From a virus (lineage: Duplodnaviria > Caudoviricetes): DNA of 55,309 nt. The stretch's first letter is position 1; each line of letters starts with the position of its first letter. This document shows, one piece after another, positions 5,576 to 47,565 of this stretch. Below the pieces are notes generated by a model. The model saw only the letters and a list, made by a program, of their open reading frames with translations, was not told the origin of the DNA and ran no database searches. The translations under genes were made by a program, and so were the position numbers. Where the stretch lies: the IMG/VR virus record IMGVR_UViG_3300030107_002626, positions 1 to 55,309 of that record; one strand, written 5' to 3'.

Positions 5576-5778
5576 TGGCAACCAGAAGAACAATTCCTTT
5601 GCCATCGCCTTCTCAAGAGTATGCTGAAGAGAATGAGGCGGTCACCAGAAGGACGATAGAATTTACTTTTCAGACATTGGAAAATGACATAGAGCTTGCG
5701 AAGACGCAGGGCGATAAGCCCGGTTCCTTGGCAATGCGTCGATTCCAGTTTCTTTTAATGGGGGCATCAGGTGGCTGA
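5575..5778 (+). CDS. Hypothetical virion protein
   Basis: Translationally coupled 67-aa ORF in the tail module. Confidence 0.65.
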   Translation: MATRRTIPLPSPSQEYAEENEAVTRRTIEFTFQTLENDIELAKTQGDKPGSLAMRRFQFLLMGASGG

Positions 5779-26971: not shown

Positions 26972-27186
26972 AGCAGGCCCTGCTAGACGTGTGCAGTCAG
27001 AGCCAATCTGAGCGTCTTTCTGCGTTGATGTACTTCACGCAGTATGGTCATGAGGGTTTTTGCATCGACGCTGAGATCGATCCAGAGGAGCTGTTCGGCA
27101 AGGTGATGAATGCCTGCCGATGGAACGAAGGCGGGGAGAGGAAGAAGGCAATCAAAAAGATTTTAAAAGACTTAGAAGTCTACTAA
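26896..27186 (+). CDS. Hypothetical protein
   Basis: 96-aa ORF between rusA and the primase; start uncertain. Confidence 0.5.
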   Translation: MGTGSGEPTGRDRGALAGTIGGRVLKQALLDVCSQSQSERLSALMYFTQYGHEGFCIDAEIDPEELFGKVMNACRWNEGGERKKAIKKILKDLEVY

Positions 27187-27250
27187 GACTTAGGAGTCTC
27201 TTAATATTAATAAATAAGAGATCACTAAGTTAAGGAGACTACTAAGTCTC
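27169..27250. repeat. AT-rich cluster of CTAAG/CTTAG and GAGACT/AGTCTC motifs
   Basis: gacttag x2, actaag x3, gagact..agtctc flanking ttaatattaataaat. Confidence 0.5.
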
Positions 27251-27275
27251 ATTGTAACCATAGGAGAAGTGTGCA

Positions 27276-29069
27276 GTGCAAGATGTGCTAGACGATTTTT
27301 TGCAATCAATCACGCAGGAGGGGCGCTACATCTGCCCAGTCTGCACCCCGGGCAGGCAGAAGAAACACCAAACCGAGAGGACGCTGGCGGTGTCGTTCAC
27401 TCCAGATGGAGGCACCATCTTCAAGTGCCACCACTGTGACATAGGTGGTCGAGCGAGCGACAAGAAGCCGACAATCATTGAACAGCCGCGCAAGGTCACC
27501 GCTATCTCGGTTCCAAAGACATCGGATCTTGGGTTGATTGGCGAATACCTAACGTCGAGGGGGATTGATGAGTCGCGAGTTGAGGGCTACGAGATCGTCA
27601 CGGGCAAGAGATATTTCAATGGGCGCGGCGAGACACCAGCGGGGGAGGTTCCTGCCATAGGGTTCGTCTACGGGGACAGGGAAGCGGTCAAGTGGCGACC
27701 ACTGAACACCAGCGACAAGAGATTCACGCAGGATGGCGCGGCCAGAATCTTATGGAACATTGAGCATGCGCGGAGGTCTGAGCCAGAAACGCTCGTAATC
27801 ACAGAGGGGGAGGTCGACGCACTGTCTGTAGCGTCATCTATCATTGATGATCAAATAGTTGTAGTGTCTGTTCCGAACGGCGCTCCACAAAAGGTGTCGA
27901 ACAAGAGGCTTGATCCGTCTGAAGACGGTAAGTTCGCTTACATCTGGGACGCCAAGGATGTCATTAAAAAGGTAAAGAGAATTGTCCTTGCCGTTGATCG
28001 CGATGAGGCAGGGGAAGCCCTGAGAGAGGAGCTTGCCAGACGGATAGGTCGAGCCAAATGTTACTCGGTTGAGTACTTAGATGGGTGTAAGGATTCCAAT
28101 GATGTCTTGCAGAAGCATGGTGCTGAAGCAGTCGCGAGGATTATTGCGACGGCTACGCCAATGCCCTTGGAAGGCGTCTACTCTGCGGAGGATTACATGA
28201 GCGAAGTCGCACACCTTTACGACAACGGAGTGGTCGGCGGTCTGTCCACTGGGATTGCCCCGGTGGATGACCTGTTCACTATCGTCCCGGGTCAGCTATC
28301 AGTGGTCACTGGTGTCCCCGGTTCTGGAAAGTCTGAGTTCATTGACCAGATCATGGTGAACCTAGCCCGTCAGCATGACTGGAAGTTTGCCGTTGCTTCC
28401 TTTGAGAATCCTCCTCCACTTCACATCGCTAAGCTGGCTGAGAAAATTGTTGGCGCACCGTTTTTCGCTGGCTCATCGGGACGCATGAGCAGGGAGGACG
28501 CCGACAACGCGCTGGCCTATATACATAAGCACTGGATGTTCTTGGAACAACGAAGCGGCGAGTTGGTCACGATTGACTCGATACTCGACCGTGCCCAGCA
28601 AGCGGTCATGCGGATGGGTGTCAGGGGTCTGGTCATCGACCCATATAACTACATTGCCCAGCAAACAGCCGCTGACAACGAACACCAATCAATCAACGAA
28701 CTGTTAACCCGACTGGTGGCCTTCGCTCGGGCGAACGACGTTCACATCTGGTTCATCGCGCACCCATCGAAGATGCCGACTGATCAGGCTGGAACGACTG
28801 CAGTGCCAAAGGGCATGAACATCTCGGGCTCGGCAAGCTTTTTTGCCAAGGCGGACCTTGGTGTCACCGTCCACCAAAATAAAAACAGAGAGGTCGAGAT
28901 CCATTGCTGGAAGGTTCGCTTCAAGTGGGTTGGGTCGGTCGGCAAGTGCACTCTCGACTACGACGTTTTGTCCGGCAGGTACAGCGCCCACGTACACAAG
29001 CCATTGGTTGTGCCCACGAGTTTGGCACCAGTCAAGGCGCATCACGAAACGGATGACGATTGGCTGTAG
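27276..29069 (+). CDS. Primase-helicase (T7 gp4/Twinkle-like)
   Basis: CPVC..CHHC Zn finger, TOPRIM ITEGEVDALS and DRDEAG, Walker A GVPGSGKS, VIDPYN. Confidence 0.93.
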   Translation: MQDVLDDFLQSITQEGRYICPVCTPGRQKKHQTERTLAVSFTPDGGTIFKCHHCDIGGRASDKKPTIIEQPRKVTAISVPKTSDLGLIGEYLTSRGIDESRVEGYEIVTGKRYFNGRGETPAGEVPAIGFVYGDREAVKWRPLNTSDKRFTQDGAARILWNIEHARRSEPETLVITEGEVDALSVASSIIDDQIVVVSVPNGAPQKVSNKRLDPSEDGKFAYIWDAKDVIKKVKRIVLAVDRDEAGEALREELARRIGRAKCYSVEYLDGCKDSNDVLQKHGAEAVARIIATATPMPLEGVYSAEDYMSEVAHLYDNGVVGGLSTGIAPVDDLFTIVPGQLSVVTGVPGSGKSEFIDQIMVNLARQHDWKFAVASFENPPPLHIAKLAEKIVGAPFFAGSSGRMSREDADNALAYIHKHWMFLEQRSGELVTIDSILDRAQQAVMRMGVRGLVIDPYNYIAQQTAADNEHQSINELLTRLVAFARANDVHIWFIAHPSKMPTDQAGTTAVPKGMNISGSASFFAKADLGVTVHQNKNREVEIHCWKVRFKWVGSVGKCTLDYDVLSGRYSAHVHKPLVVPTSLAPVKAHHETDDDWL

Positions 29070-33718: not shown

Positions 33719-34816
33719 CTAGATTGTTAAATGTTGAGTGTCGAGTTTGAACTGCACGAAGGACTCGCACGCCTTCAGGTCGCTGTCACGATTGCCTGCG
33801 ATCATGAAGAACACTGACAGCAGTTCCTCGTTGATCCGCTTCAGGTAGCTGGCTGCGTTGTCGATGTTTCCGATGTCGCAACGCTGCGCGAGGATCATGG
33901 TGATGGCGTAATGCGTCGCCAGTTCCCGCTCACCCGGCACGTCAACGCTGTCGGGGTCTGAGAGGATCAGCCCAGCGTCCGGGAGTGCCCTGACGATGCT
34001 CAGGAACCCGGCGAACTCACTGCCAGCACCAACGCCCACTGCACCGTTGATCGCGATCTGCTCAAGCAATCGAGGCAGACCGGATCGAAGGATCTCGCTC
34101 ACTGCCTCCCAAGTCCTAGGCGTTGCCGCCGTGACGTGACCCTTTGGTATGCCGCCGTCCGGGTATTCGTGGAGCATGCCTGCCTGATCAACCTCGCCGT
34201 TGCCGTCGAGGACAGGACGGCCACGCGCTGCTAGGAAGGCGATGACTTCAGGTGCCCAACCTGCAGATGTGGCGTACTCGATGAACGGCGTGAGCGCCGG
34301 AACGATGTTCAGGTGCGTGCCAAAGCGCGTCAGCAGGGCCGCATCCTGTCGTCCGTGTACACCTGCCCCATCGCATGGGCGATTGCTCGCGACGATCACT
34401 CGCCACCCGGGAGGCAGGATGTAGTCACCGAGGCAACCATCATTGACCAGTTGGTAGCACGCCGCTTGCGACTGCTGAGCGCCGAGCAGCATCTCATCCA
34501 TGAGGAGCAGACCAAACTCACCGTCACGCTCGACGCGAGGTAGCCACCCCGGTAGCTTGAACTCGGTGAAATCGCCGACGATGTCGGGAATGCCGCGAGT
34601 GTCTACTGCTTGGAGTTGAGACAAACGGGCATCGATCAGGCCCCACTGCTGCCCGGTCTGCTCGCTCAGGCTCGCAACCACGGACCGAACGATGCTGGAC
34701 TTGCCGACCCCAAACGGGCCCCACAGGAACACGGGGCGTATGTCGCGAGGCACAAGTGCCTCGATGATTGTCGCGGCCTGTTCAAGGGTCGCGTCAGGAA
34801 TGTTTGAAAATGACAT
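33719..34816 (-). CDS. MoxR-like AAA+ ATPase (365 aa)
   Basis: Start reset to ATG 34816 after CTAGGAG; Walker A GPFGVGKS, Walker B LLLMDE, VASNR, ALLTRF, TPRTW. Confidence 0.9.
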   Translation of the reverse strand: MSFSNIPDATLEQAATIIEALVPRDIRPVFLWGPFGVGKSSIVRSVVASLSEQTGQQWGLIDARLSQLQAVDTRGIPDIVGDFTEFKLPGWLPRVERDGEFGLLLMDEMLLGAQQSQAACYQLVNDGCLGDYILPPGWRVIVASNRPCDGAGVHGRQDAALLTRFGTHLNIVPALTPFIEYATSAGWAPEVIAFLAARGRPVLDGNGEVDQAGMLHEYPDGGIPKGHVTAATPRTWEAVSEILRSGLPRLLEQIAINGAVGVGAGSEFAGFLSIVRALPDAGLILSDPDSVDVPGERELATHYAITMILAQRCDIGNIDNAASYLKRINEELLSVFFMIAGNRDSDLKACESFVQFKLDTQHLTI

Positions 34817-34836
34817 ATGAATCTCTCCTAGTTTTT

Positions 34837-34898
34837 GGATTCCACAGACGCCCGTCAGGGCGTTTCGGCCAGTGTCCCGCTGGCACTCATCAGTGTGG
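34837..34898 (-). ncRNA. Hammerhead ribozyme, type I (HHR3)
   Basis: ccaca CUGAUGA g-u-gccag cgggaca cuggc-c GAAA cgccc ugac gggcg UC^ ugugg aaucc; cleavage 34847/34846. Confidence 0.92.
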
Positions 34899-34907
34899 CT
34901 CAACCCG

Positions 34908-35336
34908 TCAATACCAGCGATTAAATCCTGAGAGAGCGGCGTTGATTGGGTAGTCTTCCTGCTTGTTGCTGGGGGCGACCTTGCGGAGGATCGCGTTGAT
35001 GCGACGTGGATCGCCCAGCACCACGTTGTCGCAGCGCGGGTGCTTCGCGAAAAACTCAGCGTGCCGCCGTTCCATCGCGGCATTAGTCAGGCTGGTGCTG
35101 CCAAATGTGTAGCCGTTGATCGTCTCAGGTTGCGGCAGATGCTTGCGTGCCTCGACAATCCCCAGCGCCGCACGGCGCTCAGCGGTGCGCGGCACAATGA
35201 ATTTTTCCCAGCGGCGAGGCCCCTCAATAAACTCGCTGCGCTTCGCCGCGAAGCCTTCGCGCTTCAAGATCTCCAGCGCTCGCTGCTCGGCTGCCGTGAC
35301 CTTTAAGGTCCGCCCGTTCAGTGTGATGGTCTTCAT
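34908..35336 (-). CDS. Hypothetical protein
   Basis: 142 aa; ACTAGGAG RBS; flanked by HHR2 and HHR3. Confidence 0.8.
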   Translation of the reverse strand: MKTITLNGRTLKVTAAEQRALEILKREGFAAKRSEFIEGPRRWEKFIVPRTAERRAALGIVEARKHLPQPETINGYTFGSTSLTNAAMERRHAEFFAKHPRCDNVVLGDPRRINAILRKVAPSNKQEDYPINAALSGFNRWY

Positions 35337-35354
35337 GATGTTCTCCTAGTTTTC

Positions 35355-35417
35355 GGATTCCACAGACGCCCCGGGTGGGGCGTTTCGACTGGTGTCCATC
35401 CAGTCTCATCAGTGTGG
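35355..35417 (-). ncRNA. Hammerhead ribozyme, type I (HHR2)
   Basis: ccaca CUGAUGA gacugg auggaca ccaguc GAAA cgcccc accc ggggcg UC^ ugugg aaucc; cleavage 35365/35364. Confidence 0.93.
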
Positions 35418-35418
35418 G

Positions 35419-35961
35419 TTAGATTGCGGCATACGCCGGGAAGCTTTGCTCTTCTCTGAGAAGGTCTTCCCAGACCGAGTCGATCAAGCGATGCCCCAGC
35501 GCAGCGTTGAAAAAGTCGAGCAGTTCACGAGCGTTTCCGCCGTGTCTCTCGGCGATGATGTCAAATGCTCTGACGACTCCTCTCTGAGCAGTGCTCCGTG
35601 AACAGTTGTACTCACTGGCAGTGAGCGCCGTGAACTGCTCAATGACGAACGAATTGAGTTGCCGGTACGCCAGCAGTGAATCATTGGGCCGACCTTTGTA
35701 GATAAGTTTGGCAAGCACCTGCAGCCTGCGGCGGTTCCGCTCGTAGGTGGCCTGACCGTCGTTCTCATAGCTGCCCTCGACCCACAGGCTGAGGCAGTCG
35801 GCTGCGCGGGTCGTCTGAGCCGCTTGGGTGAGTGCACTGAACCCGACCAGTTCACGCTCGGGCCGGGTGGCACCTGCACTCTTCAGATCGGCAGTGTGAG
35901 AGGCATGCGCCCATTCGATGTCTAGTACCAGATCGTTGGCGATGGTTTGGGTGACGTTCAT
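35419..35961 (-). CDS. Hypothetical protein (first gene of the operon)
   Basis: 180 aa; ACTAGGAG RBS; flanked by HHR1 and HHR2. Confidence 0.8.
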   Translation of the reverse strand: MNVTQTIANDLVLDIEWAHASHTADLKSAGATRPERELVGFSALTQAAQTTRAADCLSLWVEGSYENDGQATYERNRRRLQVLAKLIYKGRPNDSLLAYRQLNSFVIEQFTALTASEYNCSRSTAQRGVVRAFDIIAERHGGNARELLDFFNAALGHRLIDSVWEDLLREEQSFPAYAAI

Positions 35962-35980
35962 GATGTTCTCCTAGTGGTTT

Positions 35981-36033
35981 GCGTTTCGGCCTGCCGTGGC
36001 CCTCGTCAGTGCATCGGCATTAGATGCATACGC
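35981..36033 (-). ncRNA. Hammerhead ribozyme, type III (HHR1)
   Basis: gcg UA^ ugcauc uaaugcc gaugca CUGACGA g-ggcc acggca ggcc GAAA cgc; loop I UGCC complementary to loop II GGCA; cleavage 36029/36028. Confidence 0.88.
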
Positions 36034-36221
36034 TGTACATGCTCTCGCATGTACCGGGGCACTCTGGGTGACATGAGGTCACGCCCCGCGACGGTGTGTA
36101 CGCTTTACGCCTCTCCGGCATTCTTACCGGGTCAAAGGGTGCGCCGGATTCAAACCGGAGGGCCGAGGCCCCATCAAATAGCAGTGATTAAGTAAGTGAG
36201 TAAGTAATGAATGAGATTCGA

Positions 36222-36250
36222 AAGATACACACCAATCACCCTACATGCAA
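36222..36250 (-). promoter_or_regulatory. Putative sigma70-type promoter of the ribozyme operon
   Basis: TTGCAT-17 bp-TATCTT on the minus strand. Confidence 0.55.
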
Positions 36251-36607: not shown

Positions 36608-37063
36608 ATGCCGACCAGTGAACTGACACCCAAGATGCTGCACTTCGCCCGATGCGTTGCGGGTGGAATGACCCAAGCGGACGCCTATCGAGAGGCATAT
36701 GACCCCAGCGACTCAACCACTGCCGCGAGCATCCACACGTTGGCGTCTAGGCTGATGTCACGGGTTGAGATCAGGTCAAGGGTAGATGTGCTGATAGCTG
36801 CTAGAGAGAGAGCAGTTGCAGCCTCAGCGGTCTCCGACCGAGAGCGAGTCCTAGGCCAACTCCGAGACTGGATGGACTCAGCAGAGCCCACCGACAGCAA
36901 CCGGCTCCGTGCCGCTGAACTGCTGGGACGTGCATCGGGGCTGTTCGCCACCGAGGTGAACGTGACGAACCGAGAGAGAGACGCAACAGAGGTAGCTGCA
37001 GAGTTGGAGCAGCGGCTGGCAGGCATCCTCTCTGCAGTCGAGCCAGAGGCAGATGTTCACTGA
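36608..37063 (+). CDS. terS: Terminase small subunit
   Basis: LTPKM..FA..GMTQADAYREAY..ASRLM..RLRAAELLGR; upstream of terL. Confidence 0.8.
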   Translation: MPTSELTPKMLHFARCVAGGMTQADAYREAYDPSDSTTAASIHTLASRLMSRVEIRSRVDVLIAARERAVAASAVSDRERVLGQLRDWMDSAEPTDSNRLRAAELLGRASGLFATEVNVTNRERDATEVAAELEQRLAGILSAVEPEADVH

Positions 37064-37533: not shown

Positions 37534-39045
37534 ATGCCGTTACAAGACCGGATAGATCCCAATCTTCTAAAGAACATTAACCTTCTACCTGTTGCAGAGC
37601 AGGAGGAGATTCTTGGTCTCTTAGAGGAACTGGAGTCTGCTGAAGAGAAAGAGCGAGCCAGAGATACCTTTATCGGTTTTGTTAATAGTGTTTGGCCTGC
37701 CTTCATTGAAGGCCGACATCACAAAATAATGGCCCGGGCGTTTGAGCGGGTTGCCAATGGTGAGTTAAAGAGACTCATCGTTAATATGCCTCCCCGGCAT
37801 ACTAAGTCTGAATTTGCTTCCTACCTGTTACCTGCTTGGTTCTTGGGCAAGTACCCGGAAAAGAAAATCATTCAGACGGCTCACACTGCTGAGCTTTCTG
37901 TTGGTTTCGGGCGCAAGGTTCGGAACCTAGTGGACAGTGATGACTATAAGTCCATATTTCCCCAAGTTGCACTGAGGTCTGATTCCAAGGCCGCAGGACG
38001 CTGGAGTACCAACAAAGGCGGGGAATACTTTGCTATTGGTGTAGGCGGTGCCGTTACAGGTAAAGGTGCTGACTTATTAGTTATTGATGATCCACACAGT
38101 GAACAGGAGGGGCAGAGTGCGGACCCATCAGTCTTTGATCGGGTCTATGACTGGTACACCTCTGGTCCAAGGCAGCGTCTTCAACCCGGCGGGGCCATCA
38201 TTGTTGTAATGACCCGATGGCATAAAAGAGATCTGACCGGGCAGATACTTAAATCCTCCCTGCAAAGATCAGGCTCTGATGAATGGGAGCTGATCGAGTT
38301 CCCGGCACTTATGCCTTCTGATGAGCCACTGTGGCCCGAGTTCTGGCCCAAAGATGAGCTTGAAGCTCTGCGGAATGAACTTCCGGCCCCGAAGTGGAAT
38401 GCCCAGTATCAACAGAACCCGACCTCGGAAGAGGGCGCTCTGGTTAAAAGAGAATGGTGGCGCGTCTGGGAAAAAGACAATCCTCCTGCTTGTGAGTTTG
38501 TCATTCAGTCATGGGACACGGCCTTTCTTAAGACCCAACGTGCTGACTACTCTGCTTGTACGACGTGGGGTGTTTTCTATCACCCTGACGAGTCAGGCAT
38601 AGAGCAGCCCAACATTATCCTCTTAGATGCCTATAAAGAGCGGCTGGAGTTCCCGGAACTCAAGAAGAAAGCCTATGACTACTGGGTAGACTGGCAACCG
38701 GATGCATTTATCGTTGAGGCCAAGGCAGCAGGTACACCATTGATATTTGAACTCAGGGCAATGGGTATTCCTGTTTCTGAGTACACTCCATCCAGAGGTA
38801 ACGACAAGATAGCTAGGGTCAATGCTGTCGCAGATTTGTTTGCCTCCGGGATTGTTTGGGCACCTGAACTTAGATTTGCGGAAGAGGTTATCGAAGAGTT
38901 TGCGGCTTTCCCTTCAGGGGAGCATGACGACTTGGTTGACTCCTCAACTCAGGCATTGCTCAGATTCAGGCAAGGCGGCTTCCTGAAACTGAACAGTGAC
39001 GAAGAAGACGAGCCTATTTCCATCAGGAAGGCAAACTACTATTGA
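37534..39045 (+). CDS. terL: Terminase large subunit
   Basis: Walker A MPPRHTKS, Walker B LLVIDDP, MTRWH, SWDTA, HDDLVDS. Confidence 0.95.
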   Translation: MPLQDRIDPNLLKNINLLPVAEQEEILGLLEELESAEEKERARDTFIGFVNSVWPAFIEGRHHKIMARAFERVANGELKRLIVNMPPRHTKSEFASYLLPAWFLGKYPEKKIIQTAHTAELSVGFGRKVRNLVDSDDYKSIFPQVALRSDSKAAGRWSTNKGGEYFAIGVGGAVTGKGADLLVIDDPHSEQEGQSADPSVFDRVYDWYTSGPRQRLQPGGAIIVVMTRWHKRDLTGQILKSSLQRSGSDEWELIEFPALMPSDEPLWPEFWPKDELEALRNELPAPKWNAQYQQNPTSEEGALVKREWWRVWEKDNPPACEFVIQSWDTAFLKTQRADYSACTTWGVFYHPDESGIEQPNIILLDAYKERLEFPELKKKAYDYWVDWQPDAFIVEAKAAGTPLIFELRAMGIPVSEYTPSRGNDKIARVNAVADLFASGIVWAPELRFAEEVIEEFAAFPSGEHDDLVDSSTQALLRFRQGGFLKLNSDEEDEPISIRKANYY

Positions 39046-46952: not shown

Positions 46953-47040
46953 TTGACCGCTTGTTCTTTTAATATCTTTCCCCTGACTGTAATGTTCCAA
47001 CTAGAGCATTAGCAGACACTAGCCAAGACAGGAGAAACAC

Positions 47041-47565
47041 ATGGCTAATACCACCTTCACCGGAGCAGTCCGGTCTGAAAACGGCTTTGATGTCGTTTCA
47101 AAAAACAGCACAACCGGAGCGTTTACCACATCCTTTACCCTTGACGGGTCTGGTATGCAGGTTACCCCGGTCTCTCTGGCCGACGCTGCCTCCACAACAT
47201 TGACCGCTGCTGTAAATGGTGGCCGTATAAATCTGGTTGGCGACAACAGCCAAGACAGCACTTATACGCTGCCAGCTCCTGCTGCCGGGGTCTTTTATCG
47301 TTTTGTTTATGCAGGCGCTGCGGCAGATGCTACTGATGCGCTTATTGTTACCCCCGGTAACACAAACTTTTACAAAGGCGGCGTAACCTTTTTGGATACG
47401 GACAACGAAGTAAGTGTTGTGTTCTCCGATGGGAACTCTAATAGCAGCATTCAGATTAATGTTCCTGCAGCTTTCGACATCACGATCATTGGTTTGGATA
47501 CTACCAATTACCAAATCTTTGGGACCGTGACTGGCGCAACTGCTCCCGCGTTTGCTGATCAGTAA
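47041..47565 (+). CDS. Hypothetical structural protein
   Basis: 174 aa; MANTTFTGAVRSENGF, TLPA; beta-rich. Confidence 0.75.
   Translation: MANTTFTGAVRSENGFDVVSKNSTTGAFTTSFTLDGSGMQVTPVSLADAASTTLTAAVNGGRINLVGDNSQDSTYTLPAPAAGVFYRFVYAGAAADATDALIVTPGNTNFYKGGVTFLDTDNEVSVVFSDGNSNSSIQINVPAAFDITIIGLDTTNYQIFGTVTGATAPAFADQ

Follow-up and report, generated by a model that had tools for sequence, protein, structure and literature searches.

A probable type III hammerhead ribozyme at the head of a ribozyme-punctuated gene cassette in a marine virus record

The locus and the element at its head

We analysed a stretch of 55,309 bases (hereafter the window), which is the whole of the marine virus record IMGVR_UViG_3300030107_002626 and is estimated to be 97% complete, and describe here a probable type III hammerhead ribozyme, HHR1, together with the cassette of genes that it precedes. 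The cassette lies on the minus strand from about 36,000 to 29,900, divergent from the terminase genes on the plus strand (36608-37063 and 37534-39045), and encodes, in this order, two small proteins without a known family, an AAA ATPase (phrog_1297), an unassigned protein of 312 amino acids (aa), a DUF2201 metallopeptidase/VWA protein (phrog_1314) and a further unassigned protein of 347 aa. A scan of both strands of the window for the hammerhead core returned 16 matches, five of which, all on the minus strand, fall in non-coding gaps of the cassette. One of these is HHR1, a type III element of 53 nucleotides (nt) with a GUA cleavage site, at 36033-35981; the other four, HHR2 to HHR5, are of type I (Table 1).

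In HHR1, stems I and II are closed by loops and stem III is open, being made by the 5' and 3' ends of the element. In the four type I copies it is stem I that is open (CCACA...UGUGG or a close variant), stems II and III are closed, and the cut is predicted after GUC, CUC or UUC. The preliminary description of this DNA had called the first element circularly permuted relative to the other four, correctly so, because those four are type I. The invariant core of HHR1 is complete (C3 U4 G5 A6 N7 G8 A9 and G12 A13 A14) and the A15.1-U16.1 pair is present (A35984 with U36030). Hammerheads require a cleavage-site base other than G (the NUH rule), and position 17 of HHR1 is an A.

The GUA site and the closed stem I are thus as had been described, but stem II is not a clean closed helix: it holds either one G too many or a G-G mismatch. 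In the alignment to the Rfam model RF00008, G36002 next to A9 is left unpaired and a stem of four base pairs (bp) carries the loop ACGGCA, whereas in the alignment to R1, a covariance model built in this study (see below), G36002-C35988 and G36001-C35989 are paired and followed by a G36000xG35990 mismatch. The G10.1-C11.1 pair next to the core can therefore form, as G36002-C35988, in the register that places the mismatch two pairs into the stem, and not in the other. A comparable extra G occurs in stem II of the elements at two other viral loci, L084 and L089.

Downstream of HHR1, the first gene of the cassette encodes 180 aa from an AUG at 35961-35959 on the minus strand. Its ribosome-binding site (RBS) had been said to be the same block as the one after HHR2, and we find 19 identical nt (35975-35957 and 35350-35332), comprising the Shine-Dalgarno (SD) block, the AUG and two bases.

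Table 1. Coordinates of HHR1, of the features around it and of the type I copies in the window
Feature	Positions	Strand	Remarks
-35-like hexamer TTGCAT	36250-36245	-	conserved box; putative
-10-like hexamer TATCTT	36227-36222	-	17 nt after the -35-like box; putative
5' leader, about 189 nt	36217-36029	-	start putative, +/- a few nt
8-bp hairpin with GAGA loop	36054-36035	-	one base 5' of stem III
HHR1 stem III 5' strand GCGU	36033-36030	-	U16.1 = 36030; partner 35984-35981
HHR1 cleavage-site nucleotide A17	36029	-	predicted cut between 36029 and 36028, from RF00008 and R1 alignments
HHR1 stem I hairpin	36028-36010	-	6 bp, 36028-36023 with 36015-36010
HHR1 loop I UAAUGCC, 7 nt	36022-36016	-	
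HHR1 loop I bases UGCC	36019-36016	-	pair with loop II GGCA
HHR1 core strand CUGACGA (C3-A9)	36009-36003	-	same in all relatives compared
HHR1 stem II and loop II	36002-35988	-	RF00008 and R1 alignments place the pairing differently
HHR1 loop II bases GGCA	35995-35992	-	pair with loop I UGCC
HHR1 core GAA and stem III 3' strand ACGC	35987-35985 and 35984-35981	-	
Shine-Dalgarno block ACUAGGAGAACAUC and first-gene AUG	35975-35959	-	open reading frame and match to the HHR2 block
HHR2, type I	35417-35360	-	core start 35412; predicted cut after 35365; RAGATH-1-hammerhead 29.0 bits, cut-off 56.3
HHR3, type I	34898-34842	-	core start 34893; predicted cut after 34847
HHR4, type I	32831-32770	-	core start 32826; predicted cut after 32775
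HHR5, type I	31109-31048	-	core start 31104; predicted cut after 31053; RAGATH-1-hammerhead 26.4 bits

Comparative support for the fold and for the loop-loop contact

Taken by itself, HHR1 makes a modest case for being more than a chance arrangement; it is the comparative evidence that settles this point. A search with a pattern for the type I copies recovered 11 viral loci, most of which carry a type III element with different stems 5' of their type I copies. A more generic pattern (core, 9-17 bases, CGAAAC, 2-9 bases, AGGAG) retrieved 102 stretches from viral contigs, and at 40 of the 101 sites with enough upstream sequence a strict type III parse was obtained, compared with 0.94 when the 60 nt upstream were shuffled. 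Applied to all loci and the window, the parser yielded 51 type III elements, 34 of them distinct, and the 33 distinct viral elements that differ from HHR1 were used to build the covariance model R1. HHR1 scores 49.0 bits with this model (rough E ~1e-13) and is the better of two matches in the 55,309 bases.

When R1 was run on 98 of our 109 sources (L100-L110 were left out), it gave 81 matches, 54 of them distinct, in whose alignment 94.0% of the cells are paired and 11 of the 14 pairs have changed on both sides, including all six pairs of stem I, which covary. The covariation score of 0.760 compares with 0.148 in shuffled alignments (none of 500 shuffles reached it), and pairing fell to 30-44% in a control in which the partners were slid against each other. 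This support for the helices comes from distant members of the family, not from the close relatives of the window. Together with the R1 score, it bears out the earlier assignment of HHR1 to type III. A stem III of 4 bp (GCGU/ACGC), as had also been pointed out, is present but is not unusual in the family, as six of the 34 distinct elements have one of this length.

The two loops of HHR1 can form four contiguous Watson-Crick pairs, UGCC:GGCA, a run whose chance probability for these loops is 0.03 (loops shuffled) to 0.04 (random loops). The complementarity proposed between the whole of loop I, UAAUGCC, and loop II, ACGGCA, is therefore right for these four bases and wrong over the full length. 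Among 33 distinct elements, a Watson-Crick run of at least four pairs occurs in six, where 0.9 are expected with loop II shuffled, and a run of at least three in 12, where 6.05 are expected. If the register is fixed so that the last four bases of loop I face the last four of loop II, the outermost pair in the 14 elements with a 7-nt loop I is C:G in three (the window type, L070 and L084) and U:A in eight, with no instance of C:A or U:G. The same exchange is seen in a pairwise comparison: the window and L008 have stem I in common and differ in their loops by a double change, UGCC:GGCA in one and UGCU:AGCA in the other.

A test that was blind to loop II gave the same picture outside the viral contigs. 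Bacterial and archaeal genomes were searched by loop I and the core only; with UGAUGCC, three of 13 stretches were type III and loop II ended in GGCA in all three, and with UGAUGCU, two of 13 stretches were type III and loop II ended in AGCA in both. The five bacterial examples, from assemblies of Planctomycetaceae, Oscillospiraceae, Planctomycetota, Rhizobiales and Pseudomonadota, have unrelated stems. In an alignment of 19 sequences that includes the pseudoknot, its helix is 78.5% paired, with CG in six, UA in two, another combination in one and a gap in ten sequences at the outer pair, the gaps arising because MAFFT aligned the 5-nt loops elsewhere. All members of this subclass have a stem I of 6 bp and a stem II of 4 bp. 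Pseudoknotted type III hammerheads are recognised by at least four loop-loop pairs and a stem I longer than stem II by two pairs, and HHR1 has both. On these comparisons, the loop-loop contact of HHR1 is likely to be real.

Close relatives of the window are few. Only five relatives of the first gene were found in a large protein collection, and a metagenome scan gave two loci, L003 and L004, whose homologues of the first gene are 60% and 51% identical, the one in L004 not being the first gene of its cassette. Scans of viral and genome contig collections with the first gene and the ATPase, at the protein and alignment level, returned no relatives, and a near-exact HHR1 pattern matched no stretch in viral contigs and none in genome contigs. 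At both metagenome loci the 53 nt of HHR1 are identical to those in the window and stand at the head of the cassette, just 5' of the first RBS. Natural variants could be read from the contigs of four further public DNA runs at a likeness of at least 80%. Inside HHR1, A36021 of loop I changes to G and C35996 of loop II to A; G35990 changes to C in two runs (X3 and X5), which turns the G36000xG35990 mismatch into a Watson-Crick pair, and G36000 changes to C in one contig (run X8, depth 4.9, possibly an error), which likewise mends the mismatch. Near HHR1, the loop of the upstream hairpin varies and four bases are deleted between stem III and the RBS. None of these contigs has a change in the core, in stems I and III, or in the UGCC and GGCA bases.

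Several observations weigh against a functional hammerhead with a loop-loop pseudoknot. With RF00008, HHR1 scores 23.1 bits on a stretch of 141 nt (E = 0.0046), under the gathering cut-off of 48.5, so that the type III model score in Rfam, which the preliminary description had proposed as a check, did not come out in its favour; no hammerhead is reported in the window at Rfam gathering thresholds, HHR1 was not seen in a 15-kilobase (kb) Rfam search at E <= 10, and the phage relatives behave likewise, with none of four loci reaching the RF00008 cut-off. The minimum-free-energy fold of the 66-nt stretch that holds HHR1 is the three-way junction, which is retained inside the full 261-nt leader context, but it is no more stable than that of shuffled sequences (z = -0.66, equalled by 42 of 200 shuffles). 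The irregular stem II is found in L003 and L004 as well as in the window, and a mispair adjacent to the core is a reason for rejection in the hammerhead search methods set out in the part of PMC3088659 cited here. Stem III has only 4 bp. In the close relatives stems I and III are invariant and therefore neither support nor contradict the structure there; the covariation figures of the wider family are inflated, since the sequences are related and the alignment is fitted to the model, their margin nonetheless being large; three of the 14 elements with a 7-nt loop I have a non-pair in the fixed register; and the 20 listed runs include none recorded as RNA.

Setting these points against the family-wide comparison, we consider it probable, with good though not full confidence, that HHR1 is a functional type III hammerhead with a Watson-Crick pseudoknot and that it belongs to a subclass common in phages and prophages. 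Its layout, which we include in that same judgement, would be a stem I of 6 bp capped by a loop of 7 nt and a stem II of 4 bp capped by a loop of 6-7 nt, the last four bases of the two loops pairing with each other and stems I and II lying in parallel.

The conserved leader and the predicted products of cleavage

The element had been described as promoter-proximal, which fits a conserved box with putative -35- and -10-like hexamers about 190 nt upstream, beyond which there is only antisense terminase sequence. Besides the window, L004, L006-L008, L010, L012 and L013 all have the box GGTGTTGCATGT, and L003 and L015 have variants of it; TATCTT or TATTGT stands at the same 17-nt spacing in L003, L004 and L006-L008, while the sequence of the spacer varies. 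The boxes were not called by a promoter consensus scan, so the promoter is proposed here from its conservation.

Between this box and HHR1, the first 45 nt or so of the leader are AU-rich and its 3' two-thirds are GC-rich and structured. From about 36170 on, the leader is near-identical in L003 (574-753) and L004 (3050-3231), apart from an insertion of two hairpins, and is conserved far better than the adjacent protein (51-60% identical). One of its hairpins covaries, CCGG changing to CCAG/CUGG, and its fold is more stable than that of most shuffled sequences (z = -2.4, three of 200 shuffles as stable). The type III elements of L006-L015 are preceded by a partly homologous leader that shares CGGUAAGA..CCGGAG and CGGGGCG. 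The last part of the leader, abutting stem III, is an 8-bp hairpin whose stem is kept while its loop varies: the loop is GAAA in L003, L004 has one extra pair and a 5-nt loop, and the loop positions 36043-36046 are the most variable in the contigs of the relatives. A hairpin abuts the ribozyme in 13 of the 34 distinct type III elements, compared with 3.8 in shuffles and one to four at shifted positions. Its role may be to shield the 3' terminus of the upstream product, or else to stack on stem III, which is short. In the open-access literature we found no paper on this conserved leader, nor one on an abutting hairpin as a recurrent accessory of hammerheads.

A number of other readings of the leader were tried and set aside. 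It is not a known RNA or a second ribozyme as far as Rfam can tell, with no match at E <= 10, and the T-arm-like hairpin CCGG-UUUGAAU-CCGG does not make it tRNA-like, as a scan of the window with ARAGORN gave neither a tRNA nor a tmRNA. A leader pattern matched no stretch in viral contigs; a second pattern matched three stretches in genome contigs, none with a tRNA and one (L113) GC-rich and coding-like, and all three were taken as chance. The motif GGCGACGAG was considered as a shared leader signal and rejected: it occurs 45 times in our loci where 7.5 are expected, mostly in coding sequence, where it reads Gly-Asp-Glu. A repeat of the GCGUA substrate strand within the leader is not conserved in L003 or L004. 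Read on the plus strand, the AU-rich beginning of the leader (36186-36213) is a run of TAA and TGA triplets, apparently in more than one frame, just after a spurious plus-strand open reading frame (ORF) at 35947-36195.

If HHR1 is active, the operon would be transcribed from the promoter some 190 nt upstream and the RNA would cut itself after A36029 once the 3' strand of stem III has emerged. A structured leader would be released that ends in the 8-bp hairpin followed by AGCGUA with a 2',3'-cyclic phosphate, and the operon mRNA would be left with a 5'-hydroxyl and the stem I hairpin at its very 5' end, 67 nt before the first AUG. In the predicted fold of the RNA after the cut, stem I starts from base 1 and the SD region is mostly unpaired. 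As had been proposed, the cut would shed the leader, and the new 5' end would carry stems I and II. This follows from the topology: in a type III element almost all of the ribozyme remains with the downstream product, and the upstream product would keep only six ribozyme bases behind the conserved hairpin. The type I cuts would do the opposite: the upstream mRNA would retain the ribozyme body as a structure at its 3' end, and the mRNA after it would begin with an almost bare 5' end. Five cuts would thus produce the leader and five mRNAs, each with a similar RBS block, four of them with a single gene and one with two genes, because there is no ribozyme between the ATPase and the 312-aa genes. 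Hydroxyl groups and hairpins at the 5' end slow the decay that depends on that end. What the data show is the anatomy of HHR1, its place in the sequence family, its conservation, and the covariation of the helices and of the loop-loop pair; we infer that there is a promoter, that cleavage takes place in vivo and that it affects stability and translation.

It could also be that the cut mainly serves the upstream product, a stable non-coding RNA of about 190 nt with a precise 3' end, and that the effect on the mRNA is secondary, a reading that we regard as possible but doubtful. The better conservation of the structured part of the leader than of the adjacent protein, its covarying hairpin and stable fold, the near-absence of ribozyme sequence on the upstream side of a type III cut, the frequency of a hairpin exactly at the new 3' end and the related leader in L006-L015 would all suit such an RNA. 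It is set against them that only three close copies of the leader and one diverged group were found, that there is no match to an Rfam family and no further copy in the viral or genome collections, and that in many other phages the hairpin follows the stop codon of the upstream gene, so that it may only protect the upstream mRNA. A broader version, in which the leader and the type III hammerhead form one device, either by maturing a phage non-coding RNA or by a leader that gates stem III, seems to us unlikely.

Less probable again is that HHR1 is an inactive relic, or a purely structural element of the 5' untranslated region that is kept for the translation or stability of the first gene. The irregular pairs beside the core in the window, L003 and L004, the short stem III and the Rfam score could be read in this way, and the cited part of PMC3088659 notes that some clustered hammerheads may not be functional. 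The pattern of change speaks against it: the catalytic bases are kept in all copies and contigs while the loops and the mismatch vary, the loop-loop bases, which are needed only for fast catalysis, are both kept and covarying, and a stem III of 4 bp is shared with other distinct members of the family. Conditional cleavage, with the leader as a sensor or switch competing for the 5' strand of stem III in the manner of an allosteric hammerhead, is the least probable of the readings considered, for although stem III is short, its 5' strand directly follows the leader domain and consensus folds close that domain with this strand (3 bp, CGC:GCG, in the window group; GACG:UGUC and GAGC:GCUC in the closing helix of the L008 group), these alternative helices are short, lack covariation and may be artefacts of the folding programme, the hammerhead stays intact in the minimum-free-energy fold of the full leader, and no ligand-binding motif was recognised in Rfam at E <= 10.

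Ribozyme topology along the operon and known counterparts

HHR1 and the four type I hammerheads of the operon have the same catalytic core and the same SD block downstream, and differ in that the type I copies are circularly permuted, with stem I open, so that the ribozyme body goes to the upstream RNA. The type I copies also have in common the stem I CCACA/UGUGG and a tail, AAUCC, neither of which is present in HHR1, and they are weak matches to RAGATH-1-hammerhead (RF03152), whereas the stem I of HHR1 is common to the head elements of the L008 and L015 phages. The head and the internal ribozymes are thus of different sequence lineages. The region of HHR2 gives weak type III matches of its own (35379-35437 on the minus strand; 24.4 bits with R1 and 20.8 bits with RF00008). 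They arise because the conserved C-terminus of gene 1 is encoded by GGCGUAUGCCGC, a sequence that is similar to the HHR1 substrate strand and is able to pair with GAAACGCC of HHR2. A second, type III topology at HHR2 was rejected, as the would-be stem I is unpaired, and we read these matches as an echo.

The preliminary description supposed that HHR1 was recruited separately. Related viral records, however, also combine a head of type III with internal copies of type I, which indicates that the arrangement was inherited as a unit and was not added recently here. In the three viral records that were searched whole with R1 (the window and those behind L009 and L012), there is one type III element of the strength of an operon head each. 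Contrary to a head-only rule, L086 has four type III elements between genes, so the data on a rule that would relate topology to position are mixed. All three topologies occur in the operon of L009, whose head is of type III; next to its type I copies it has, at 5683-5747 on the minus strand, a type II element that is above its Rfam cut-off (46.3 against 37 bits). We found no paper in the open-access literature on position-specific hammerhead topology in phage operons.

The cassette punctuated by these ribozymes looks like an acquired accessory module, because its GC content is higher (54-60%) than that of the remaining window (45-52%). Judged by large terminase, the nearest cultured phages are Pelagibacter phage HTVC027P, at 55% identity, and phage 023Pt_psg01, at 58%. 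The annotation of the 21-kb stretches flanking their terminase genes lists neither an ATPase nor a VWA gene, R1 found no type III hammerhead in their records, and a blastn search of 35350-36250 against cultured phages gave no match. The 180-aa first gene has no match in Pfam, PHROGs, NCBIfam or PADLOC, and none of the six operon proteins was matched in PADLOC and NCBIfam. The longest ORF for the ATPase (33719-35083, minus strand, 454 aa) extends back across HHR3; an alternative AUG at 34816-34814, directly after the RBS block of HHR3, gives 365 aa, the length of the L004 homologue, and is the more likely start.

Two further features lie elsewhere in the window. Its sole match at Rfam gathering threshold is a Mu-gpT-DE RNA at 46981-47043 on the plus strand (50.6 against 49 bits), whose end coincides with an AUG in the region of the head genes. 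A long AT-rich inverted repeat (27169-27257, 31% GC), just 5' of a primase-helicase gene (27276-29069, plus strand), gives spurious microRNA matches on both strands and may be an origin or a bidirectional terminator.

Every feature of HHR1 has a published precedent, since each is reported in the part of Perreault et al. (2011; PMC3088659) on which we draw here. According to that part of the paper, all three permuted types of hammerhead are common in bacteria, and about 40% of hammerheads, type III included, apparently use a pseudoknot between stems I and II; in a type II example, mutating the pseudoknot slowed the rate and a compensatory mutation restored it. The legend of a supplementary figure links a 2-bp length difference between stem I and stem II to the type III pseudoknot as a common feature. 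In prophages, multiple hammerheads of mixed type are described as flanking single genes, which implies the processing of long transcripts. HHR1 shares with the type III elements of that study (RF00008, clan CL00010), as they are presented there, the core, the open stem III, the Watson-Crick loop-loop contact and, as in its pseudoknotted type III members, a stem I 2 bp longer than stem II; it differs from the RF00008 type III in scoring below the cut-off and in the extra G or G-G mismatch of stem II. The subclass may already be included in the supplementary lists of the paper.

Two known systems resemble the position of HHR1. HHphage of the haloviruses HF1 and HF2, as it appears in the same part of PMC3088659, is a variant that precedes the start codon of the first ORF in a polycistronic transcript by 13 nt, with a mapped 5' end that coincides with the cleavage site, and HHR1, too, would lie shortly before the first ORF of a polycistronic phage transcript. 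HHphage is a variant of the core in an archaeal virus, while HHR1 has a canonical core and comes from a marine virus record. RiboJ, a synthetic insulator made of the sTRSV type III hammerhead and a hairpin, likewise puts a type III hammerhead between promoter and RBS; in the portion of PMC6206723 used here it trims a leader derived from the promoter and leaves a structured 5' end, which serves as our working model for HHR1, and in E. coli it raises transcript abundance about twofold and protein two- to tenfold. RiboJ is engineered and has its extra hairpin downstream of the ribozyme, whereas that of HHR1 lies upstream, on the leader that would be released, and the likeness is one of function, not of shared descent.

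Mixed types, loop-loop pseudoknots and clustered prophage hammerheads were thus already described in 2011, and HHR1 leaves the knowledge of hammerheads unchanged. What it would offer is a natural counterpart of the RiboJ design, in which the 5' end of an mRNA is standardised by a ribozyme, here joined by type I hammerheads between the cistrons; as the two topologies would leave the ribozyme body on opposite products, the locus could serve to examine whether the position of a ribozyme decides its topology. For one type III subclass, the comparisons lend the Watson-Crick contact between the loops further support, drawn from several bacterial phyla. Only the conserved leader could change what is known of hammerheads, since a natural regulated hammerhead, or a phage small RNA matured by a ribozyme, would, if true, be new.

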